Shown one piece after another: positions 1,860 to 51,018 of a stretch of DNA of 64,000 nucleotides. Positions within the stretch are counted from its first letter, which is position 1, and each line of letters opens with the position of its first letter. The position numbers and the translations under genes are program-made. The stretch is from contig VHDF01000020.1 in NCBI GenBank assembly GCA_016871495.1, forward strand, positions 1 through 64,000, written 5' to 3'. Origin of the DNA: Verrucomicrobiota bacterium. GTDB lineage: Bacteria > Verrucomicrobiota > Verrucomicrobiia > Limisphaerales > VHDF01. Under the pieces are notes generated by a model that had not been told where the DNA came from, did not search any database, and worked only from the letters and a program-made list of their open reading frames with translations.

Positions 1860-3221
1860 TCAATGTTCCCAATCGGTCCACTGGACGAGTTCCGCCAGGC
1901 CAAGACGTCCGTCGTGGCGCCACGCTGCCGGAGGTTGCTGCATGCGGCCCAGAGGACAGACACGGCTAACGCCCCATCGCGCGAGGCGGTACACGATTTC
2001 CGGCGCGTCCCCGTCATGGACGGCGAGGCCCACGGTCGAAACTTGGCCCCGCACGACGTCCGCCGCCTGGAGCATGTCGTCCACCGACCTCACCCCCTTG
2101 ACATAAATGAAGCGGTGCAAGCAGGACTTCTGAAACTGAGGGTCTTGTTCGAAGATGACGGTCCAGGCGGTGGAATTCTCGCTTTTCCAGAGTTGCGTGC
2201 CGGTGCCTGCCGAGGCCCGGATTTCGTAAAGCCCTCGCAGCCGCGTGATGGTGGCCGACACTTCGGGCGCGAGCACTGCGCGTGGCTCCTCCGATTCGAC
2301 CCGATCCAATTCCTGCGCGAGCTTCTCCGCGAAGGACTCCGGACTGGCGGCGCCGCCTTCCTCGACGTAGATCACCTGCGGGGAAAGACAGCCCAATTGA
2401 TCCCACGTGGCCACGTCTGCCGCCGCTTTGCCCGCCAGGCGGCCGAGATTGTGGGGGACCAGCAGGTCTTTGCTGATGAACGCGAAACTGAGCCGGTTGC
2501 CGAAGCCGAGGAACCGCACTCCCGCCGGCACACGCGAACGGATGCTTATCAGCGTTTCGTCCTGGCCCGCCGCGGTCACGCAGCCGGATTCGGCGATCAA
2601 GGCATCGGTGAGCTCCTGTTGTTCCGAAGACCATTCGGCGAATTCGAGGCAGGATCCAACGCGTGAATCCAGAGCATGCAGGGCATGCGCGAAAACGCGC
2701 GGAATCAGCGAGGTTCCAGGAGAACAACGGAAAAATTGGGAGGACTTGGCCAGCAGTCCGAGTACCATCGACTGCAGCGCGGAAACCGGCAGCAGCCGCG
2801 GAGTGATGTGCCCGATCATCTCGGGCCCCGTCGCGACCGACGATTTATTCGCGCGCTGTTCCACGGGTGTGGAGCAGATTTCGTCCAGGCGGCGCTCGTG
2901 TCCCAAGTCCTGGCGCAGGAGATCCAGGATCGAGTCTCGCGTGAGCGATTCGAAAAAGCGGTCCAATCCCGAGGCCAGCGAAGCCGGAGAAAGACCGGTA
3001 TGGGCGGGACCCTGGGTGAGCATCCGCTGCCGAAACGGATTGGTGGGATGCCGGCATTCCTCCCCGAGCGAGGCGATGAGGGAAACGAGAGAGGAAGTAC
3101 TCATCGTTTCGAGGTACCGGGCGCGGTTTCTTTTCACCGCAATGGACGCCTCGCGCACGATGCGAGGATCCAGGACCGCCTCGGGCGGCATGTCAGCGAG
3201 ATACAGGGCGGGGAATTCCAT
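1860..3221 (-). CDS. LuxC-like acyl-CoA reductase (aldehyde-forming) family protein
   Basis: 453 aa with a probable catalytic Cys in 'WDQLGCLSPQVIYVE'. The size matches the aldehyde-dehydrogenase-like LuxC fold, and it sits immediately downstream of a LuxE-like adenylating enzyme. Confidence 0.5.
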   Translation of the reverse strand: MEFPALYLADMPPEAVLDPRIVREASIAVKRNRARYLETMSTSSLVSLIASLGEECRHPTNPFRQRMLTQGPAHTGLSPASLASGLDRFFESLTRDSILDLLRQDLGHERRLDEICSTPVEQRANKSSVATGPEMIGHITPRLLPVSALQSMVLGLLAKSSQFFRCSPGTSLIPRVFAHALHALDSRVGSCLEFAEWSSEQQELTDALIAESGCVTAAGQDETLISIRSRVPAGVRFLGFGNRLSFAFISKDLLVPHNLGRLAGKAAADVATWDQLGCLSPQVIYVEEGGAASPESFAEKLAQELDRVESEEPRAVLAPEVSATITRLRGLYEIRASAGTGTQLWKSENSTAWTVIFEQDPQFQKSCLHRFIYVKGVRSVDDMLQAADVVRGQVSTVGLAVHDGDAPEIVYRLARWGVSRVCPLGRMQQPPAAWRHDGRLGLAELVQWTDWEH

Positions 3222-3242
3222 ATCGCATCCACTCGAATAGCA

Positions 3243-4349
3243 TCAGGGCGCGCTCAGACTGCATCCCCGGGGTTCGGCGTTCGCGGAGCGTCCCCGCAGT
3301 TCGAAGGACTGGCCGTGGGCGATGACGAGATCTTCCGTTTGAAGCGCGCACACGGAGCCCACGTTGGCGAGATCCAAGACGCGAAGCAGTCCCGTTTCGC
3401 CGTCTGGAACCGGACGCTCGGTCTCTGGAGAAACGACTTGGATGCGGGCCCAGGGAGGGAATTGAAAACGGCGGTTTGCGGACGGGGCGAGGCCTCCGGC
3501 GGCGTCGTAGGCTTGGGAGCTGAGTTCGCACATGCCATATTCGCATAGGATTTGCTCGCGCGGCAGGCCCAGGAACTTCGAGAGCCGGTCATGCAAGAGT
3601 TCCTTCGGCCATGCGTGGGAGCGTCCCTTGTAGCCTCCGGTCTCCATCAACCCCGATCCCGGCGGGAGTGAAAAGGTCAGGCCTGCCCGGGCGAAATATT
3701 CCAGGGCATGGACGAACATGAACGCTGTTCCCAGGAGCAGCGCAGGAACTCCGTCGTGGCAGGAGCGGTGCAGGGCGTCGCTCAGTCGCTTCAAATCGAG
3801 ATGCCAGAGGCCTGCCGGATCGGCCATGGCCACATATTCCGCGCGGATCCAGGGGTGCCGCTGCTTTACCGTCTCGAACATGTGAACGAGCGAGGAGTGT
3901 GGCGACTGCCGTGGGGAGGGGCTGAGACAAAGCAGGTGAGCGCTCTGAAGGGAGGGGGCGAGCACCGCGTGCTGGAATCCGCGCCACAGTGAAACTTCAT
4001 AGACGTCCAGCGAGGCCGCATGGTGATGGTGCCGGCTTGGCGTCGCTCCGGTGGTTCCGCTGGAATGAAAGGTCGCGATCGTTTCTTCGTCGGGAAACGC
4101 GCGGAGGTTCTGTTCCTTGAAAGCGGCGAGGGGAATCGCGGGTATTTCGGTCCAGTGTCCTGGTGTTGCCTCCTTCTTTTGCCGGGATTGAATCCAGCGG
4201 CGATAGGGAGTGACTTGTTCCCATTGCCGGGCAAACAGGCCCAAAGCCAGTCGATCAAACTCTTCTTCCCGGGGGGCATCCTTCGGGAAATGGCGGATCC
4301 ATTCGAGAATCGATGGATTGAGGGACGGGCAGGCGGGGTGGGAAGGCAT
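3243..4349 (-). CDS. LuxE/PaaK-like adenylate-forming enzyme (acyl-protein synthetase family)
   Basis: Carries the 'SSGTTG' AMP-binding signature. About 369 aa from the internal ATG at 4349. Paired with the LuxC-like gene. Confidence 0.5.
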   Translation of the reverse strand: MPSHPACPSLNPSILEWIRHFPKDAPREEEFDRLALGLFARQWEQVTPYRRWIQSRQKKEATPGHWTEIPAIPLAAFKEQNLRAFPDEETIATFHSSGTTGATPSRHHHHAASLDVYEVSLWRGFQHAVLAPSLQSAHLLCLSPSPRQSPHSSLVHMFETVKQRHPWIRAEYVAMADPAGLWHLDLKRLSDALHRSCHDGVPALLLGTAFMFVHALEYFARAGLTFSLPPGSGLMETGGYKGRSHAWPKELLHDRLSKFLGLPREQILCEYGMCELSSQAYDAAGGLAPSANRRFQFPPWARIQVVSPETERPVPDGETGLLRVLDLANVGSVCALQTEDLVIAHGQSFELRGRSANAEPRGCSLSAP

Positions 4350-4507
4350 GCGGTTTTGGCGAGGGCGGAAGGCTGGTTGGCCGCGACAGCCTGGGATGTG
4401 GGGTGGAAAAGGAGAGGAGCGTCGGGGTGGGCGGTCTCGCCACCATGGAGTGCTGATTTCGGCAGGCGGTTGAGGGGAGGGGAGTGCCGTGTCGAGTTGT
4501 TTCGCCC

Positions 4508-5410
4508 TCACCATCGAATCGTTTTGGGGAAATACTCGGCGATCAAATCGTCGTAGAAGGGGCGCAGTTTCTCCACATCCGGAGCTTCATGGCTCTTGGT
4601 GTAAAGATCGTAGGGGTTGAACGCCTGGACCCATTTGAGGTTGGCGCGATCCTGGTCGTTGAGCAGGTGTTGATAGGCGCCTTCCCGATGCCACGGGTAA
4701 AAAGAATGGTAACGCAGCATGTAGAGCGCTTCCTGCGGCAGGTAATCCTTGGTCACGTGATAAATGTATTCGTCGTGGCCCCAGGAAATGTGGACGTTAT
4801 CCAGTCCGCAACCATTTTTATACACGCCCAGGCTGGTTTGGAACCGGGACTCCTTGGAGTCTGGATTGTCGTGGAAGAAAGGATGGAAAACGATGGTGTC
4901 GGAGTAGGCGCAGCCGACAGGGAACGTATCGCCCACCACCGCCCATTGGGGTTCGCCATAGAGGCAGAGGATCTTGCCGAGATCATGAACCAGGCCTGCC
5001 AGGATAAACCAGCGTGGGTGACCGTCCTGCCGGATTTGCTCCGCGGTTTGGAGCAGGTGTTGCAACTGGGACAGATCCGTATCGGGATCGCTGTCATCGA
5101 CCAGGGTGTTGAGGAACTCCATGGCCTCCCAGATCCCCATCTGCTTGCGACGGAGGGAGAGGAAATCTTTCTTCTTGGAGAGGACGAAATCGTAGGTTTG
5201 CCGATGATGGTTTTGCCGGTAGAATTCGCGGACGGAGGGGCGGGCGTTGGCTTCGTAGTTTCGGAACTGTTCCTTCTTCTTGGCTGGGTCGGTCGCTTTA
5301 AAGGGAGTGGTCGCCACCGCGGTCGTCGCGGGTTCGGGGTACCGCTCTTTGACAAATTCTTCCCATTCTTCGAGGCTTTGCAGCGGTTGGTCGGACGAAG
5401 GCTGTTGCAT
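4508..5410 (-). CDS. myo-inositol oxygenase (MIOX, HD-domain di-iron oxygenase)
   Basis: Strong similarity to eukaryotic MIOX across the protein: [79 protein letters not shown]. The start was placed at the internal ATG at 5410 (MQQPSS...). Confidence 0.85.
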
Positions 5411-5604
5411 AGGATTTCGATAAAACGCTCCCGAATCATGGCGGCGAGGCGCGACTTCCGGCAAGCCACAAAACGTGGCCTTCCAGCCTGGCGGTGCATC
5501 CCGAAGTTGTCTGGAGTGTGGCGCAGGCTGCCCAGCCTGCCGTCTCGCCGACGGCCCGGCGGGTGAAGAACCAGGCCCTTCCATGCTCTCCAGGCGCCTG
5601 GAGA

Positions 5605-5733
5605 GCCTATTTCATGCACGGGACGCCCGGTGAGGACACCGGGCCTACAAACACGGAGGCAGTCGAGATTGTAGGCCGCGTGCCCTCACGCGGCGCACTG
5701 TCGCGGATTCAAGCTCAGTATGAAATATGCGGG
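5605..5733. repeat. Family-2 palindromic intergenic repeat, copy 1 (~130 bp, REP/MITE-like)
   Basis: Near-identical to 37599..37729 (about 85-90% identity). Termini are inverted (tatttcat...atgaaata) and there are internal hairpins (cccggtg/caccggg; ggcctacaa/ttgtaggcc). Confidence 0.6.
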
Positions 5734-5875
5734 CTAGTCCCTTCGTCGCCCCGCAGGCTGGGCAGCCTGCGAAACAGCAGACAGGGCTGCCTGCGTGACC
5801 AGGACAACCCGGTCACCGACAACCTCTTGATGCACCGCCGGCGTGGCCATGCCAAGCCCGGCGGAGGGATCCGGT

Positions 5876-7306
5876 TCAGGCGAGCAGGCCTGGCACGACT
5901 TCTCCGGCGATTCCGGTCAATCGCATGTCCAGGCCTTGAAAACGGTGGGAGAGCTTGCGGTGGTCGAATCCCAGCAGGTGAAGCAGCGTGGCATGCAAGT
6001 CGTGCACGTGGACCGCGTCGCGAACCGCATTGAACCCGAGTTCGTCGGATTCGCCATGGACGTGTCCGCGCTTCAGGCCTCCCCCGGCCATCCAGATACT
6101 GAAAGCGCGGTTGTGATGGTCGCGTCCGTCGTTGCCGCCTTGCACCATGGGGGTGCGGCCAAACTCCCCGCCCCAGAGGACGATTGTGCTGTCGAGAAGT
6201 CCCTTTTGTTTCAGATCCTTGATCAAGGCCGCGCTGGCGCGGTCGGTGTCCACGCAGTTCTGTTTGATGGCCTTGGTGAGATTGCCGTGCTGGTCCCACG
6301 CTTCATGGAAGAGTTGCACGAAGCGGACGCCCCGTTCGGCCAGGCGCCGGGCGAGGAGGCAATTCCGCGCAAAACCGGGTTGTTTGGGATCTTGGATGCC
6401 GTAGAGATCGAGCACGTGCCGGGGTTCTTTGGAGAGATCGAGCAATTCCGGCGCGCTCGTTTGAAGTTGATAGGCCATCTCGTAGTTCTGGATGCGCGCG
6501 GCGGTTTCGGGATCGCCGTTTACGTTCAGTGAGGCCTGATTGAGCTCGCGGAGGGTGTCGAGCGAGGCGCGCTGGGTTTCCAGGTCGAAGCCCCGGGGAT
6601 TGGACAAATAGAGAAGGGGATCGCCGGTCGGACGCAAGGGAATGCCCGAGTAAAGCGTGGGCAGGAATCCGCACCCGTAATTGCTGGCACCGCCGCTGGT
6701 TCCTTTGGCGGATGTCAACACGACATACCCGGGCAGATTCTCACCCTCGGATCCGAGGCCGTAGAGCGTCCAGGAACCGAAACTGGGCCGGCCGAAAATC
6801 TGCGAGCCGGTGTTCATCATGATCTGGGCCGGCGCGTGATTGACGGCCTCGGTCTGCATCGTTCGCACGAGGCAGAGTTCATCGGCGACTTCGGAGGTGA
6901 ACGGGAGGATTTCGCTCAGTTCCATCCCGCACTGGCCGCGCGGCGCGAATTTGTATTTCGGACCGAGCAAGGCCGAGTTCGGTTTAATGAAGGCGGCCCG
7001 GTAATCCTTCAGAAGATCCGCGGGCGGGAGTTGTCCGTCGCGTTTGGTCAGTTCGGGTTTGGGGTCGAACAATTCCAAATGGCTGGGGGCACCCGCCTGG
7101 AACAGATAAATGACGCGCTTGGCTTTGCCTTGGAAATGGGGCGCTCGCGGGGCGAGGGGATTGCCGGGCGATTTCGACGGACGCTTTTCGCGAGCCAGGA
7201 GTGATTGAGTGGCCAGGGCGGCCATGCCGACGCCGCAATCCCGGAAGAACCATCGGCGCGTGATGAGCCTGGCCGTTTCCCGCCGGATTTCTTGGGCTAA
7301 GTTCAT
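5876..7306 (-). CDS. DUF1501 family protein (sulfatase-like fold) with a TAT-type signal
   Basis: N-terminal 'TRRWFFRDCGVGMAALA' signal, and C-terminal DUF1501 motifs (VLWGGEFGRTP, DHH...). It is the typical partner of the adjacent PSCyt/PSD gene. Confidence 0.85.
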   Translation of the reverse strand: MNLAQEIRRETARLITRRWFFRDCGVGMAALATQSLLAREKRPSKSPGNPLAPRAPHFQGKAKRVIYLFQAGAPSHLELFDPKPELTKRDGQLPPADLLKDYRAAFIKPNSALLGPKYKFAPRGQCGMELSEILPFTSEVADELCLVRTMQTEAVNHAPAQIMMNTGSQIFGRPSFGSWTLYGLGSEGENLPGYVVLTSAKGTSGGASNYGCGFLPTLYSGIPLRPTGDPLLYLSNPRGFDLETQRASLDTLRELNQASLNVNGDPETAARIQNYEMAYQLQTSAPELLDLSKEPRHVLDLYGIQDPKQPGFARNCLLARRLAERGVRFVQLFHEAWDQHGNLTKAIKQNCVDTDRASAALIKDLKQKGLLDSTIVLWGGEFGRTPMVQGGNDGRDHHNRAFSIWMAGGGLKRGHVHGESDELGFNAVRDAVHVHDLHATLLHLLGFDHRKLSHRFQGLDMRLTGIAGEVVPGLLA

Positions 7307-7308
7307 AA

Positions 7309-10300
7309 TCAATGCTTGGTCAGAGTTTCGTCGAGATTGAGGAGCACGCGCGAAGCGACCGCCCATGCCGCCGCGTCCCGGGGGGTGGTCTTTTCGGGAA
7401 GCGAGGCTCGCCGGGAAGGGTCGCCGGTGGCGAGTTCGTTGGCATTCAGCCAGCCTTCGGAGATCTTCTTCCGGCGGGAATCCAGGAGTTCCAGCAACGC
7501 TTGTTTTTCGGAAGGACGCGGGGCGCGTCCGACGCAAAGTTGGTACGCGTAGTCGGCTCGCCGGGCATCCGTGGCACCGCCTTCACGGAGGATGCGCAGC
7601 GCGAGGGCTTGCGAAGCTTCGACAAACACCGGTTCGTTCAGAGAAGCAAGCGCGGCCAGCGGCGTGTTGGAGCGGGGCCGGCGGGCGCAGGATGTGTCGG
7701 CGTTCGGAGCGTCAAATGTGGAAAGCGCGGGATCCGGCATCGACCGCTTGCGAAACACATAGAGCGACCGGCGGTAACGCTCCGGTCCCTGCGCTGGAAT
7801 CCAGTAGTCCATTCCGAAAAAATTGAAATCCAGCACGTTTTGAGGCACCGGGGGAAAAATGCTTGGTCCTCCGATGCATGGGGAAAGCAATCCTGAAGCG
7901 GCGAGGGCGATGTCGCGGATCACTTCGGCCTCGGCACGGAAGCGTGGCCCGCGCGCGAGCCACTGGTTGCCGGGATCCTTTTCCTGTTGTTCGGGAGTGA
8001 CGCGGGAGGATTGGCGGTAAGTGGCCGAGGTCACGATTCCCCGGATCAGCTGTTTATGGCTCCAGCCTTTTTCCATGAAATCGACCGCCAGCCAGTCGAG
8101 CAATTCCGGGTGAGAGGGCTCGGCTCCGCGCAATCCGAAATCTTCCGAGGTCTCGACCAAGCCGCGTCCGAAGAGGGCCTGCCACACCCGGTTCACGGCC
8201 ACGCGGGCGGCGAGGGGTGAGCGTTGGTCCACGAGCCATTGCGCGAAAGCCAGTCGGCGGGGAAGGTTGCCGGGTTCGATCGGATGCAAAACCGCGGGCA
8301 CCTGAGGACGGACGGTTTCTTTCGGGCGGTTCCATTGCCCGCGATCGAGGCGTCTTGTTTCGCGTGGGTCTTCGGGGCCGCGCTCGGCGAGGTGGAGGAT
8401 CGAGGTGACAGGGTCCGGATAGGGCTTCCAGGCGGCTTCGGCCTCTTCGTTGAATGATTTCAGTGCGGGGACGGAGTGGCGCCAGGCCGCGAACAGGGTG
8501 CGACGTTGTTTGTCGGTGCGCCTGGCTTCGGGGACGCGCAGGGCGAGGATCGCCGCGTAATCGACAGGCGGAGCCGAAGGATGGGGATGAGTGGTGGTGG
8601 AGAGACGGAACCTTCCGACCATGGTGTTTTTGTCCCCGTTGTTGTCCCCGCCATGATTCATGCGCAGCGAAAACTTGAGTTTGGTGCCGCGTGGAAGCGT
8701 TTGCGGCGTTTCAAATTGAACGACGGCGACGGACTCGGTGTGGCGCCGGCCTCGTCCGCGATCCGCGCGCCAGCCCGTCAGGTCGTTGGTGTCGATCAGA
8801 TAAGCGACCGGACCTCGCCGGCGCTTGCCATCCTTGTCGAGCGACTTGTTGCTCCATTCCGGCTCCATCGAGCCATCGGGCTCCGAGAAATCCGCGGTGG
8901 CTTGGGCGAGTCGAAGCGCGGTCCATTGGTTGCTGCCGGGCCTTTTCGCCTCGACGATGAGTTCGGAGAGTGCCCAGGTGCCAAGAAAGCTTCGGCCCGG
9001 GCCGTCGTAGGGCAAATCGCCGTGCGTGAAGATCTCCAATCGCAACCCTGTGATGTTCTCCATCGCCGGTTGGGCGATCATGTACACGTCGCCAGAAACG
9101 GTGCGGTGTCCCAAGGTCAGTATGGAGCCATCCGGGAGGGTGGTGGGATGGTTCAATTCAGACGTGGAATGGAGATCCTCCGCCTCGATCACTTTCCAAT
9201 CGTACCGGTCGGAGGTATCCAAGACCTGCTTGCCCCAAGCGTCGAGTTCAGCAGCCCAGTGCGGACGCGACTCGCGGACACGTCGGTCGACATCGTCCAG
9301 CGTGGCCTGGAGTTTGGCGATGCGTTCCTGTTGCTCGGAGTTATAAACGCGGGACTGAGCGTCATAGCTGTTGTTGATGAACGAGAAGAGTCCGTAATAC
9401 TCCTCGTGCGAGATGGGGTCGAATTTGTGGCTATGGCATTGGGCGCATTGCAAAGTCAGGCCAAGAACGCTTTTCCCGAGCGTGTCCATGCGGTCGAAAT
9501 TGCCCTCCATCCGGAACTCTTCGGGAACGATGGCGCCTTCCTCGTTGATCATGCCGTTCCGAAAGAAGCCGGTGGCGATGAGTTGATCCTGCGTGCGTCC
9601 GGGCAGGAGGTCGCCGGCGATCTGCTCGACGATGAACTGGGGATAGGGCAGGTCACGGTTGTAGGCTTGGATGACCCAGTCCCGCCACGCCCACTGCTCG
9701 CGCATCAGGTCTTTTTCGTATCCGTTGGAATCCGCGTAACGCGCCGCGTCCAGCCATTGCCTCGCCCATTTCTCTCCAAAGTGCTCACTCGCCAGCAGGC
9801 GGTCCGCCAGGGATTCGACGGCGGTCCCGAGGTTCTTCCGGGCTTCGGAGACAAAGCGGGCGGTTTCCGCGGGCGAAGGAGGCAAGCCGATGAGGTCGAG
9901 GTAAAGGCGACGGGCCATTTGTTCAGGGGAGGCGGCGGGAGAAGGCCGGAGACCTGCTTTCGCCAGGCGCGCCTGAACGAAATGATCGATGGCGGCGGAG
10001 CTGTTTTGTTTTAGACGGGAGGGCAGGGGGCTCTTGATGGGGGATTCGAAAGCCCAATGTTTGGAGTAGGGGGCGCCTGCGGCGATCCATCGACGCAGCA
10101 GTTCGGTGTGCTGGCTTTTGACCGGATGCTTTTCGCCGGTGGGAGGCATGACGTCGTCCGTGTCGGTGGTGAGAATGCGTTGAAGGAGGGCGCTCTTCTC
10201 GGGATGGCCCGGGACGATGGCGGGTCCATCCGATTTGCCGCCGTGGAGGGCATCGTCGCGAAGATCGAGGCGCAGTCCGCCCTTGCGGGCTTTTTCGTCG

Positions 10301-10434: not shown

Positions 10435-10905
10435 AGATGGTGCCCGAAATTTAGGGTGCTGAGGTCCTGTCTGTCGAGGCTCGATGGGAGGCTCCGGCAG
10501 TTTGGATGTGGCCGCTTGGGGAGATCGTCGAGCGAAAGTGAGCAACTTGAACGGGAGGGCGAGGTCATGTAGGTTGCGGCATGCGACCGACATCACGAGA
10601 CGTTTCATTTCAGACACGGAGTGGCGATTTTCTTTTCCACCGATTTGAATTCCGGGTCCCTGGTAACGCGATCGGCCTCCTTTTCCTTCGCCAGGGCGGC
10701 TGCGAAAGCGTCGGTCAGAATGATTTTGAAGCGGGCTCTCACATCGGCGGCGGTGTTGGCCAGCGCGCGGTTCGTTGTGGAAGCAGGGGACGAGCGCGAA
10801 GCTGTCGAGCATTTTAGCGGTCCTTTCGATCCGCCTGTTCCCGCTCTGCTTCTTGTGCTCCGACCACGCTTTGGTCAATGGGTTCTCGCACGGCCTGCGT
10901 TCGAG

Positions 10906-11039
10906 CGGTGCATCCCGATGTTGCCGGTGATGCAGGTAGGGCGCGTCCGTCCCGGCGCGCCGCCGGAGCATGATGTTTTGCATCCAGTGGGCGGCGGGCT
11001 GGGACAGGCCCGCCCTACCAACAACATCGGGATACACGG
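10906..11039 (-). mobile_element. 134-bp MITE, copy A (inverted relative to copies B and C)
   Basis: Terminal inverted repeats cggtgcatcccgatgttg ... caacatcgggatacacgg. Flanked by a perfect 9-bp direct repeat gcgttcgag (10897-10905 and 11040-11048). About 95% identical to the copies at 13808 and 49978. Confidence 0.75.
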
Positions 11040-11089
11040 GCGTTCGAGAACCCCAAAGTATCCATCTTGATATCAGCGCTCATCGCTTC

Positions 11090-13540: not shown

Positions 13541-13807
13541 GTCATCAAGAGGCCGGTGGATTGACAGCAGTGCATCCATAGGTTGTCGGTGAAGCGCGTG
13601 GCAGCGCTTGGGGCGCGGCGTTCACGCCGCTTCAAGGCGTGGCTTCTAAAGGGCATAGCCGGTTCAACGGGCAAGCGTGCTGCCCGGGCGATGGCATCCA
13701 CCCACGGTGGGCCATGGAGTGGGAGGAGATCGCCGCGGCAGGTTGGCGCGAGCGGAAGCGCCGTGAACGGGGCGTCCCGACATCGAGCGGATGCGCCGGA
13801 CTTACAG

Positions 13808-13941
13808 CCGTGTATCCCGATGTTGTTGGTAGGGCGGGCCTGTCCCAGCCCGCCGCCCACGGGATGCAAAACATCATGCTCCGGCGGCGCGCCGGGACGG
13901 ACGCGCCCTACCTGCATCACCGACAACCTCTGGATGCGCCG
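13808..13941 (+). mobile_element. 134-bp MITE, copy B
   Basis: Left TIR ccgtgtatcccgatgttg. The right end is diverged (caacctctggatgcgccg). Flanking 9-bp direct repeat gacttacag / gactttcag (13799-13807 and 13942-13950). Confidence 0.7.
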
Positions 13942-35915: not shown

Positions 35916-36760
35916 GTTTTGACTTTGAACAAGGCTTGGACGGATTCGTAACCGTCGACCGTCTTGATCATGTACTGAGGCAGGCTCTCGGCGGTGAGGC
36001 CCAGGATTTCCATGGCTTCGGCGCGTCCCCGGAGCGCGAAGGCCTGGTGCCCGTATCCATGGCCGAGGAAATAGGCGATCATGTTGCCGATATAGACGTA
36101 GGAGGCGCGTTGAGCGTGGGGTTTGGCTTCGGCGGGGTGGTGGTGATGCCAGATGGCGGCGACGAGGTTGGGCGGGAAGTTCCAGCGCGCGAGCAGTCGT
36201 CCGCCGATTTCGGCGTGTTGCACTCCGAGAAGCTTCTTTTCGGCTTCGAGCATGGATTGCTGGGAGTCCTCGGTTTGTTGGACCAATTTGGCATAGACAT
36301 GCTCCAGGGCTTCGGAGAGCACGATTTTGCCGATGTCGTGCATGAGGGCGGCGGTGAACACCAAGCTTTCGTCTTCGCCCTGGTCGTGGGCGATCAGACG
36401 GGCAGCGACGGCGGCGGTGACGGAGTGTTTCCACAGTTCGCCCGGCTCGATCCCGTATCCTTTTTGGGGTGGAGCCAGGGCGCGAGCGCCGCTGACGGCG
36501 GCGACCATTTGGTAAATCTGGCGGAAGCCGAGACGGGTGACGGCTTCTTGAATGTCCGTAGCCGGGGTGGCCTGGGCAAAAAAGGCGCTGTTGCAGAGCT
36601 GGAGGACGTTGGCGGTCAGAGCCTGGTCGTAGGCAATGAGCTCGACGATGCGGCTGCTATCGACGTCGGGGTCGCCGAGGAGAAGGAGAAGTTGGGGCAG
36701 GATCTTGGGGGCGGGCGGGAGCGTTTTGACTTTGTTTATGTATTCGTCAAGCTCTTGCAT
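35912..36760 (-). CDS. HDOD (HD-related output domain) signalling protein
   Basis: HDOD motifs across the protein, including LMHDIGK and conserved His residues. Confidence 0.7.
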   Translation of the reverse strand: MQELDEYINKVKTLPPAPKILPQLLLLLGDPDVDSSRIVELIAYDQALTANVLQLCNSAFFAQATPATDIQEAVTRLGFRQIYQMVAAVSGARALAPPQKGYGIEPGELWKHSVTAAVAARLIAHDQGEDESLVFTAALMHDIGKIVLSEALEHVYAKLVQQTEDSQQSMLEAEKKLLGVQHAEIGGRLLARWNFPPNLVAAIWHHHHPAEAKPHAQRASYVYIGNMIAYFLGHGYGHQAFALRGRAEAMEILGLTAESLPQYMIKTVDGYESVQALFKVKT

Positions 36761-37449
36761 AAGATCATATCGTTCATTTGGCCCGATATTTTGAGGCGAA
36801 CTCCTCCGGATTCGGTGTGGAGGAACATGGACCGGCTGACGAGTCCTCCGATTTGCTCGGCGTGGAGACGCAGGTCGTGGTGCTTGAGAATCGACATCAA
36901 GTTCTCATAATTGCGCCGTCCGATATTGAAGAAGCCCCCGGAATCGAGCACTTGGGCTCCACCCGCCGCGCAGATCACCAAGTGTTGCCGATTCGCGCCC
37001 AATGCTTCAACGGCCCGCAACAAAGCGGGAATGCCCGTGTCGATGAACATCGCGGGTTGTGAGGCGGCTTTGCGGGGTTCGATGGAGGAATCTGGAAGCA
37101 TCATGTGCACCAAACCGCCCACCCGGGATTGGGGATCGTAAGCGGACACGCCGATGCAGGAGCCGAGGGAATACGTGCTCAAGACCGGACCGGGTTTGTT
37201 TGTGGCTGCGAGATCCGCGATGCCGACAATGACCTTGGGTTGACTCGCGTGCGGTGCAATGGCTGTGGGCGGAATCTCGGAAGGAGGCTGGATGGAGGGG
37301 AAACGGCTCAGGCGTGGCAGGATGTCCGAGCCCTGAAGGTTGGATTCGAGGATTCTCCCGACTGGAACCGGCCGGGATGGGGAAACAGCGGGCCAAGGCA
37401 AGGCGCGAAGGACCGGTTTCGGGACGGGAGGGGCAGGGGAAAGCGCCAC
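36736..37449 (-). CDS. cheD: CheD-like chemoreceptor glutamine deamidase
   Basis: GIADLAA...LGSCIGVSAYDP (catalytic Cys) ...GGLVHMMLP... matches the CheD fold. There is a Pro-rich N-terminal extension and the start is uncertain. Confidence 0.65.
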   Translation of the reverse strand: MALSPAPPVPKPVLRALPWPAVSPSRPVPVGRILESNLQGSDILPRLSRFPSIQPPSEIPPTAIAPHASQPKVIVGIADLAATNKPGPVLSTYSLGSCIGVSAYDPQSRVGGLVHMMLPDSSIEPRKAASQPAMFIDTGIPALLRAVEALGANRQHLVICAAGGAQVLDSGGFFNIGRRNYENLMSILKHHDLRLHAEQIGGLVSRSMFLHTESGGVRLKISGQMNDMILCKSLTNT

Positions 37450-37598
37450 CGGACGGGACGGATGGCGATCCGGGCCGCCGCTTCATGGGTTGGTTGGATC
37501 TGGAGCATTGAGCGCTGGAAGGGCGATTCTTTAGGACAAAGCTGCGCGGAGAACAAACGGGATTGTTCCAGGCTTCAAGATTTTTGCAAGGATGGTAG

Positions 37599-37729
37599 CC
37601 CGGATATTTCATGCACGGAACGCCCGGTGAGAACCCCGGGCCTGCAAACACAGAGGTCGTCGCGATGGTAGGCCGCGTGCCTCACGCGGCGCACTGTCGC
37701 GGATTCAAGCTCAGTATGAAATATCCGGG
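37599..37729. repeat. Family-2 palindromic intergenic repeat, copy 2
   Basis: Perfect 14-bp terminal inverted repeats cccggatatttcat / atgaaatatccggg. The internal core is almost identical to 5605..5733. Confidence 0.6.
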
Positions 37730-37804
37730 CCAAGAGGGATATTCGTGCTGGTGATGTTTGGAATCCGGTCTTGTTTCGGCCTCAGCCCGGGGTATGTTTC
37801 CATG

Positions 37805-38797
37805 ATGAAAGTGTTTTCCTTCCTGAAATCGGAATCGCGATCCCGAGGCCGCCGGGTTCGCGCAACGCGATGCCACCGGCCATGGCTGGCCTTGCTGCTT
37901 GGGTTCGGATGTCTGGGGACCAGGGCCGACGCGATGGCTGCGGATGCGGTGTATTCCGGACCGCAGATTGGGGAGAAGACAACCCCCTTCAAAGTGGTGG
38001 AAGTCCTGGGCGAGAACACGGGCCGCGAGCGGGATCCGGTGATGGAAAACAAAGGGGCACCCACCGCTTGGGTATTTGTGCATGGCATTGAGCGGTCCAT
38101 GGTGCCGTTGTTGAGGGTGATCGATCAGTACGGGGTGGAGAGGCGTTCGTTATTGAAAACGGAGATTGTGTTCCTGGCCGCAGATCGCGTGGATGGCGAG
38201 CGACGTGTCAAAGCCGCGGCGAGTTCCCTCAAGTTGCAGGGCAAAGTGGGTTTGTCCCTGGACGGAGGAGAGGGACCCGGAAATTATGGATTGAACAAGG
38301 AATGCCTGATGACGGTGCTGGCCGGGAAAGAAGACCGTGTTGCCGCCAATTTCGCGCTGGTCCAGCCCGGTATCGCGGACGCGCCGAAAATTCTGGCCGC
38401 GCTGGCCGCCGTCGCCGGAGACAAAGCTCCGCCGACCGTGGAACAATTGACGGAGAAGTCCATGGCTCGAAGCGGAGCGGGCCGCGCGCCGGGTGCCGTG
38501 ATGGCGGGAAGCCAGGAAAAGCCCAAGGAGAATTTCCCGGGAGCGGTTCCGACCGACGCCAAACTCCAGGGGATGCTACGCAATTACATTCGACCCACGC
38601 AAGAAGCGGCGGCCGTCGATGCCCTTCTGGTCGAGATCAAGGCTTACATCAAGGACAGCGAAGATCTGAAAAAGCAGGCGATCGACGGGTGGACTCGGGT
38701 CCTGCATTTCGGCGACCGTTACGGAAATGAGTATTCCCGAAAAGTTGGGCGGGAATTCTTGGAGCAACTGCAGCGAGCGCCTGAGCGGAAGCCATGA
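37805..38797 (+). CDS. Hypothetical secreted protein
   Basis: Signal peptide (RPWLALLLGFGCLGTRADA). No recognisable domain. Confidence 0.45.
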   Translation: MKVFSFLKSESRSRGRRVRATRCHRPWLALLLGFGCLGTRADAMAADAVYSGPQIGEKTTPFKVVEVLGENTGRERDPVMENKGAPTAWVFVHGIERSMVPLLRVIDQYGVERRSLLKTEIVFLAADRVDGERRVKAAASSLKLQGKVGLSLDGGEGPGNYGLNKECLMTVLAGKEDRVAANFALVQPGIADAPKILAALAAVAGDKAPPTVEQLTEKSMARSGAGRAPGAVMAGSQEKPKENFPGAVPTDAKLQGMLRNYIRPTQEAAAVDALLVEIKAYIKDSEDLKKQAIDGWTRVLHFGDRYGNEYSRKVGREFLEQLQRAPERKP

Positions 38798-46263: not shown

Positions 46264-46356
46264 GGAACTTCGCACGGCAAAAACTAGCGAGGAAATGCAG
46301 GGTCGGCAATGACAGGGCGGTGCATCCGCAAGTTGTCGGGGCACGCCGATTGGGAG

Positions 46357-49977: not shown

Positions 49978-50111
49978 CCGTGCATCCCGATGTTGTTGGT
50001 AGGGCGGGCCTGTCCCAGCCCGCCGCCCACGGGATGCAAAACATCATGCTCCGGCGGCGCGCCGGGACGGACGCGCCCTACCTGCATCACCGGCAACATC
50101 GGGATGCACCG
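49978..50111 (+). mobile_element. 134-bp MITE, copy C
   Basis: TIRs ccgtgcatcccgatgttg ... caacatcgggatgcaccg (17 of 18 bp complementary). Perfect 9-bp direct repeat actgcggat on both flanks (49969-49977 and 50112-50120). Confidence 0.8.
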
Positions 50112-50804: not shown

Positions 50805-51018
50805 CGAGTCGTTCCAAGCTGGCATGAAGCCCGAGCCACGCCGTGTGGCCCGGGCTTTTTTGCGTCAGGCATCGAAGAGGAGAGCCGGGTTGGAGGCGGT
50901 CCATTTGCACCGCAAGCTGTCTGTGGTAATACGACAACCCGGTCACCGACAGCCTGTAGATGCACCGGGTTGGAGGCCGACCTCCATCAATGGCTTTCTT
51001 TTCCCCGAGAGCTGAGGT

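Follow-up and report, generated by a model that had tools for sequence, protein, structure and literature searches.

In Neisseria, the MITEs known as Correia elements (NEMIS) measure about 100-155 bp, carry terminal inverted repeats and are abundant in intergenic regions. They are co-transcribed with their neighbours and can form long hairpins in the mRNA; TA is duplicated when they insert, they contain IHF sites and promoter-like ends, and their processing by RNase III is documented. The ERIC (or IRU) elements of enterobacteria are imperfect palindromes of about 127 bp which lie in transcribed intergenic regions, fold back over their whole length and are shared by several genera through conservation, but lack evident target-site duplications. 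Concerning insertion sequences, the IS5 group is the textbook case of a 4-bp duplication of CTAG, IS5-family ends being typically GG or GA, while IS1380 produces duplications of 4-5 bp and has ends with CC, and IS630 targets CTAG and duplicates TA. For IS5, CTAG has been reported as a consistent 4-bp duplication (PMC10379815), and the duplications of IS701 elements are of exactly 4 bp (PMC2266710). REPs and REPINs are defined by palindromic units of 20-40 nt with a GTAG or CGTC tag that belongs to the element, arranged as inverted doublets and without target duplication, and GTAG-tagged REPs have been reported in Verrucomicrobia, for example in Opitutus terrae (PMC3733652).

Here we describe a 132-nt element with two copies in a 64-kb stretch of verrucomicrobial DNA (the whole stretch analysed, called the window below). 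It is non-coding, it has terminal inverted repeats and a duplication specific to each copy, and it is found at many unrelated loci; we consider it very probable that it is a MITE, that is a DNA transposon which is not autonomous and depends for its movement on a putative DDE transposase, perhaps IS5-group-like, that acts in trans and makes 4-bp duplications. The IS5 group and the MITEs derived from it share with our element the 4-bp duplication at CTAG, or more generally YTAR, and the short terminal inverted repeats (for IS5, PMC10379815); the derived MITEs are likewise non-coding and dependent on a transposase supplied in trans. Unlike the IS5 group, our element has termini that begin with CC(C)G, and the loci searched yielded no IS5-family transposase whose ends match. 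Correia elements are comparable in size range, terminal inverted repeats, intergenic location and long hairpin, whereas they duplicate TA instead of 4 bp and have no sequence similarity to the element. ERIC elements match it in size and fold, but our element has clear 4-bp duplications and is absent, as judged by two 21-mers, from 185,579 GTDB representatives.

The element is presented as a previously undescribed MITE family for the Verrucomicrobiota, a phylum in which little is charted of the biology of mobile elements. The family is new but its kind is well known: it is ordinary selfish DNA, and neither an RNA gene nor a regulatory device of a new sort. No new mechanism is involved; the value of the family is in annotation, as a marker for tracking the lineage and as a lead to an active transposase.

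Two copies in the window

The first-pass annotation had pointed to a structured repeat at 5605-5733 and to its recurrence at 37599..37729, and both were located on the same strand. The repeat sequence that it quoted lies at 5608-5727 (plus strand), and a profile search with nhmmer places the complete copy 1, of 132 nt, at 5602-5733 (plus strand, E=1.9e-50) and copy 2, which has 131 nt because of a 1-nt deletion, at 37599-37729 (plus strand, E=1.6e-46). This deletion also separates the two blocks in which a repeat finder reports the pair, one of 77 nt at 88% identity and the other of 51 nt at 98%. In the 3' half, an exact match of 38 nt is present twice in the window, against an expected number of 0.00 (100 shuffles). 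When the two copies were aligned together with their flanks (45 nt at either end), the similarity started about 6 nt 5' of TATTTCAT and stopped about 5-9 nt 3' of GAAATAT, and the sequences beyond were unrelated.

Since the flanks are unrelated, the copies are not part of a larger duplicated segment. The first-pass annotation had itself named an outcome that would refute it, with only two copies, both inside a larger duplication, and this is not what was observed. The window, taken by itself, does contain two copies only, and a pair of this kind might be read as a chance similarity or a segmental duplication with no repeat family behind it; however, no chance match is expected, the flanks differ, and at least 11 more copies are found elsewhere (see below), so that we regard the probability of this reading as negligible.

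Copy 1 sits, as proposed, between the genes for a DUF1501 protein (5876-7537, minus strand) and for MIOX (4508-5410, minus strand), both neighbours being confirmed by Pfam; the stop of the former and the start of the latter face the copy. The MIOX start was set at 5410 by a public MIOX of 300 aa with 99% identity, and the spacer holding copy 1 measures 465 nt between these two minus-strand genes. Directly downstream of MIOX, at 1860-4514 on the minus strand, there are genes for a LuxC-like acyl-CoA reductase and a LuxE-like acyl-protein synthetase, an unexpected pairing with an inositol oxygenase. Copy 2 is flanked by two divergently transcribed genes, cheD (36736-37449, minus strand) and a hypothetical gene (37803-38797, plus strand), the product of which has 331 aa and is 100% identical to 'MAG: hypothetical protein FJ404_06660 [Verrucomicrobia bacterium]', which identifies the window as DNA of an uncultured verrucomicrobium known from a MAG.

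Further copies and their distribution

An exact 21-mer from the 3' end of the element matches 11 JGI metagenome contigs, all from samples of Lake Tanganyika (10.1101/834861). A second copy was detected within one of these loci, L008, about 120 nt from the first, by an nhmmer profile search of the fetched loci, and a protein bait translated from the consensus open frame retrieved three spurious 'proteins' (see below), through which locus L013 was reached. After overlapping contigs had been collapsed, 12-13 independent insertions were counted, each with a different flanking sequence, of which about 11 come from the Lake Tanganyika metagenome contigs in addition to the window pair; from the source genome, the copies examined are the two in the window. 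Exactly 132 nt is the length of 8 of the 11 complete copies, and the mean pairwise identity among full-length copies is 0.90. It should be noted that most metagenome copies were recovered with the 3'-end 21-mer, so that the conservation of the 3' end is in part an effect of ascertainment.

Conserved 21-mers were taken independently from the 3' end and from the central loop, and both gave 0 matches in the GTDB species representatives mentioned above; the family is absent from these genomes or unassembled in them. A scan of viral contigs and a blastn search of plasmids gave no match to the element either, nor was any sequence relative of it present in the collections searched. As far as can be seen, the family is restricted to one freshwater verrucomicrobial lineage.

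The element has a single open frame, of 41 codons. It is broken in three copies, by a frameshift in copy 2, by a 1-nt insertion in L006 and by loss of the start codon in L003, and substitutions within it are spread over all codon positions. A coding role was considered for this frame and is ruled out by the frameshifts and the lost start codon. A public protein collection nevertheless contains three 'proteins' of 57-65 aa (P0121, P0122 and P0123) that were called across the element in JGI metagenomes. These are spurious ORFs from its one open frame, and the family is thus a source of false short genes in metagenome gene calls.

Terminal inverted repeats and target-site duplications

The inverted termini announced by the first-pass annotation, TATTTCAT and ATGAAATA, are real, and the adjoining bases lengthen them to 14 nt (CCCGGATATTTCAT). 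The 14-nt repeat CCCGSATATTTCAT is present at both ends of the element in inverted orientation: complete copies start with it and finish with its reverse complement, with the exception of the degenerate left end of copy 1, and in the window it is found at the ends of the MITE only. In copy 2 the terminal repeats of 14 nt are perfect (CCCGGATATTTCAT and ATGAAATATCCGGG), while copy 1 has an intact right repeat (ATGAAATATGCGGG) and, on the left, a degenerate stretch in the outermost 6 nt, where AGAGCC replaces CCCGCA.

We then compared the tetranucleotides immediately outside these repeats. Copy 1 has CTGG on its left (5598-5601), a decayed or imperfect target-site duplication, and CTAG on its right (5734-5737), which is one of the 8 CTAG in the window; copy 2 has GTAG on its left (37595-37598) and CCAA on its right (37730-37733), where the duplication is lost. 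Among the metagenome loci, the left and right tetranucleotides are identical in four copies (GTAG/GTAG in L002, CTAA/CTAA in L007, CTAG/CTAG in the first copy of L008, L008a, and TTAG/TTAG in L013). Four more copies are off by one base, namely copy 1 together with L001 (TTGG/TTAG), L003 (CTAG/ATAG) and L005 (CTGG/CTAG), and for the second copy of L008 a match needs an offset of 1-2 nt. Most imperfect duplications differ by transitions of the central dinucleotide, from TA to TG or CA. Overall, left and right agree directly at 29 of 36 positions, against 23.9 in permutations that reassign the right ends to other copies (p=0.004), and deviations from CTAG are common to both sides of one copy, in direct orientation. 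At the outer positions of the tetranucleotide, a direct match is found in 15/18 cases and a mirror-image match in 8/18.

Since the flanking repeats co-vary directly within each copy, they are 4-bp target-site duplications at a YTAR-like site, and this behaviour excludes both a tag carried by the element, or an extension of its inverted repeat, and a TA duplication of IS630 type within CTAG. The latter scheme deserves some discussion. In a MITE of IS630/Tc1-mariner type that inserts in CTAG and duplicates the central TA only, the outer C and G would be target flank on one side and the terminal base of the element on the other. CTAG-like sequence does flank most copies, and copy 2 fits this scheme slightly better, with one mismatch (TA versus CA) and a terminal repeat that matches at 15/15 positions (GCCCGGATATTTCAT). 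The scheme predicts, however, that the right tetranucleotide opens with the invariant last base of the element, independently of the base that opens the left one, whereas the outer bases co-vary (G/G in L002, T/T in L001 and L013, A/A at position 4 in L007) and the direct agreement given above exceeds the mirror agreement. The duplication found is not confined to TA, and we judge a mechanism of this type very unlikely.

The first-pass annotation had used the term REP/MITE-like, and the two halves of this term fared differently. A REPIN, or REP doublet, consists of two repetitive palindromes in inverted arrangement that are moved by a tyrosine (HUH) transposase of the RAYT type, and our element recalls it through its long imperfect hairpin of about 130 nt, its intergenic position and the GTAG that flanks two copies. 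On the other hand, the tetranucleotide is variable (CTAG, CTAA, TTAG, GTAG) and it is repeated directly instead of being mirrored, as a target-site duplication would be and a tag belonging to the element would not. The terminal inverted repeats are moreover of the conventional type and the length is fixed at 132 nt, the element is not made of two units of 20-40 nt, and the 25 Pfam families listed, out of 61 matched in the window, gave no sign of a RAYT-like gene. The defining features of REPs and REPINs are therefore not those found here, and this origin seems to us extremely unlikely. The MITE half of the term is the one that stands, given the terminal repeats, the 4-bp duplication, the 12-13 insertions, the nesting of one copy in another element and the presence of truncated and deleted copies.

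CTAG is a rare sequence in this DNA, with 8 occurrences in the 64 kb against 222 expected from base composition (a depletion of about 28-fold) and 26 expected by a second-order model. TTAG, CTAA and TTAA are likewise strongly depleted in the window. Restriction avoidance and repair bias are possible causes of the scarcity of CTAG.

Nested insertion of copy 1

Copy 1 is itself surrounded by another MITE-like element of a different family (5493-5836), about 210 bp long, whose termini read GGTGCATCC-N4-GTTGTC and form an inverted pair that brackets copy 1 at 5493-5511 and 5818-5836. The window contains 10 matches to this terminal motif, where 0.16 are expected. In the metagenome, the host element has two paralogs without the interruption, at L001 3931-4151 and L006 1463-1650. 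In a three-way alignment the paralogs read ...CGCCTGG/TTCCCTTCG..., and exactly at the position of the slash the window copy has the 132-nt block followed by CTAG. The paralogs show CTGG-TT at the junction and the filled site CTGG...CTAG-T; the comparison is not base-perfect, because the left end of copy 1 is degenerate (AGAGCC for CCCGCA) and one T is missing. The alignment indicates that copy 1 was inserted inside the host element and that the paralogs represent a paralogous empty site.

No orthologous empty site was found among the contigs and relatives of either window locus. In this search the DUF1501 protein had no record match, the contig with the 99%-identical MIOX stops at the host repeat, and contigs bearing the neighbour gene of copy 2 have their first base within the MITE, so that its right end is present in them. 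Copy 2 is likewise present in the Logan contigs from this organism, and the next relatives, with 65-80% identity in protein, are too distant for an intergenic comparison. The other elements of the window with GGTGCATCC ends were also tried as an empty site for copy 1, and failed, as the alignment shows shared termini only.

These GGTGCATCC-N4-GTTGTC elements form a heterogeneous group, in which only the ends are common and the interiors differ; in the window they are located at 5493-5836, 10906-11039, 13569-13797, 13808-13941, 46319-46337, 49978-50111 and 50948-50966. The group includes the 134-bp MITE, which ends with the same motif, so that the host of copy 1 carries the same type of terminus as this second family. 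An 18-nt perfect palindrome, GCAGGCTG-SS-CAGCCTGC, is present twice inside the host element, at 5523-5540 and 5753-5770, and again in metagenome paralogs (L006, about 1609-1626); it is a REP-like sub-motif of the host family.

The 134-bp MITE had been set apart from the repeat studied here in the first-pass annotation, and our results agree. The two families occur in the same genome and in its Lake Tanganyika relatives (L005 2934-3069, with 98.5% identity, for the group of the 134-bp MITE), and both are intergenic, similar in size and able to form hairpins. Unlike the 132-nt MITE, however, the 134-bp MITE has unrelated termini, and its copy at 10906-11039 lies between 9-bp direct repeats, GCGTTCGAG, at 10897-10905 and 11040-11048. 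A duplication of 9 bp in one family and of 4 bp in the other implies different transposition machineries.

Folding of the element and the question of a structured RNA

The first-pass annotation described two perfect internal hairpins. Both are perfect in copy 1 and imperfect in copy 2. The first, H1 (CCCGGTG-AGGA-CACCGGG), is at 5626-5643 on the plus strand, and the second, H2 (GGCCTACAA ... TTGTAGGCC, with 9 bp in copy 1), at 5642-5677 on the same strand; in most other copies H2 is weakened by uncompensated changes. A third hairpin not previously noted, H3 (GCCGCGTG-CCCT-CACGCGGC), lies at 5675-5694 (plus strand) and partly excludes H2. Copy 1 as a whole folds into a single long imperfect hairpin, with a minimum free energy of -65 kcal/mol (z=-4.7) on the plus strand and -63.5 kcal/mol (z=-4.3) on the minus strand, while most other copies prefer a branched fold with a terminal stem and two local hairpins. 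All 11 complete copies fold strongly on both strands, with z from -2 to -7. The equal folding of the two strands is the behaviour of a DNA palindrome and gives no hint of a transcribed strand.

We evaluated whether the element could primarily be a structured RNA, whether as the gene of a small RNA or as a hairpin acting in cis within an mRNA (a stabiliser, a processing site or a terminator-insulator), with selection maintaining both sequence and fold and with a copy number that reflects function instead of transposition. Several observations would agree with such a role: the strong folding of every copy, the intergenic position of all of them, the location of some directly 3' of a gene (L013 begins at the stop codon) and the invariance of several 3' positions, the last of which is partly due to the recovery of copies with the 3'-end 21-mer. 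The results on structure point in the other direction. An Rfam search of the whole window gave no match at the gathering threshold, and matches with E up to 10 were hairpins at chance level. The RNAalifold covariation term is +1.99, that is unfavourable; about 90% of positions are paired in the long-hairpin and in the branched fold alike, which is also the value for shuffled columns, and for both folds the controls (shuffled or slid) show compensatory changes just as often, these covariation tests having low power with 12 sequences of about 90% identity. Substitutions in the stems are uncompensated, and in some copies whole hairpins are deleted or truncated. Finally, a structured RNA would leave the target-site duplications unexplained.

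No U-tract follows a hairpin on either strand, and no sigma-70-like promoter was found in the element; the sole terminator-like match, at 5585-5606, belongs to the junction with the host element and lies outside the MITE family. The genes around the copies are convergent in L001, divergent at copy 2 and tandem at copy 1 and in L013, and the copies have both orientations relative to transcription, without preference. The suggestion of a transcription terminator-insulator made in the first-pass annotation is not supported, given these contexts and the missing U-tract, and neither is that of a small structured RNA, given the Rfam, covariation and strand comparisons together with the indels that remove whole hairpins. 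We therefore hold a primary RNA function to be very unlikely. The long hairpin comes from the palindromic sequence of the founder copy, and is not demonstrably under selection as an RNA structure. A copy co-transcribed with an adjacent gene would place a hairpin of about -60 kcal/mol in the mRNA, and copy 1, between the DUF1501 and MIOX genes, is a candidate case; any consequence for the stability or processing of the mRNA would be a putative side effect.

Proposed transposition mechanism and candidate transposases

The most probable history of the 132-nt element is that of a MITE. In the proposed mechanism, a DDE transposase encoded elsewhere in the genome would bind both terminal repeats and would excise or copy the element; a 4-bp staggered cut would be made at the rare YTAR target, and repair of the gaps at this cut would generate the target duplication.

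We looked for the partner of the family in the window and in about 100 kb of related loci. Neither an element of more than 1 kb bounded by the terminal repeats of the MITE nor a transposase gene beside such repeats was found there, and searches with the terminal repeats in the window and the loci returned MITE copies and one solo end only. In the Pfam analysis of 30 window ORFs, no DDE transposase was present among the 25 listed of the 61 matched families. An insertion sequence in L011 was also considered as a partner, and rejected for its unrelated 21-bp termini and truncated IS4-family-like transposase. As no partner was found, the assignment to a transposase family is based on the duplication, by which the IS5 group, IS701 and IS1380 fit equally well in length; by analogy we call the putative enzyme IS5-group-like, with the family not fixed by this single character.

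The MITE may also be linked to its target in an unusual manner. The rare target overlaps the stop codons TAG and TAA, which could favour insertions at gene ends, as with the copy on a stop codon in L013, and each insertion adds a further copy of the target, which could make existing copies hot spots for new ones. This idea is improbable in our opinion; it would explain why remnants of left ends follow the right duplication in L011 and L013, and why an IS4-like element lies in the CTAG between MITE ends in L011. As part of the same improbable reading, some copies might have been co-opted as 3'-UTR hairpins that stabilise the mRNAs upstream.

Decay, adjacency and rearrangement among copies

Two copies, in L006 and L011, are truncated at the 5' end, and L008a has lost 18 nt that correspond exactly to the internal hairpin H1. 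Such truncations and the deletion of a hairpin, together with the degenerate left end of copy 1, are a decay typical of selfish DNA.

A comparison of L001 2897-3349 with L004 1533-1985 showed that the MITE and 300 nt of its right flank are common to both loci at 95.8% identity, while the left flanks are unrelated and the element of L004 has a far more divergent 5' half. Either MITE copies have recombined or been rearranged here, or the assembly is chimeric at the repeat; the comparison suggests that the family may mediate rearrangements.

In L011, the truncated insertion sequence mentioned above extends from 1437 to 2516; its terminal repeats measure 21 bp (GCTAATGCCTTTCGGAAATTC), the transposase fragment that it encodes is IS4-family-like, and it lies within a CTAG that has the right end of a MITE on one side and a 19-nt solo left end on the other. 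It looks like an insertion into the duplication shared by two tandem MITE copies. Its transposase matches NF033592 with E=1e-22, below the curated cutoff, and the match to DDE_Tnp_1 is weak. In L013, the MITE (3846-3998) has TTAG on its left and on its right and coincides exactly with the stop codon (TAG) that ends a CN_hydrolase gene, and the sequence just past the right duplication, CCCGCCTGTTCCA, resembles the left terminal repeat, as if it were the remnant of an older adjacent copy.

Finally, the MITE marks breakpoints of assemblies, as Logan unitigs of the same organism end there. The unitigs of three public runs (SRR7990334, ERR14822405 and SRR7008372) are 99.6-100% identical to the window and break precisely at the repeats. 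One of them, L012, corresponds to 4452-5498 of the window and ends at the terminus of the host repeat, and two others, L017 (37703-38991) and L018 (37703-38936), start inside copy 2, as repeated sequence would lead one to expect. This shows that the same strain is present in other public runs, and that its repeats break assemblies.
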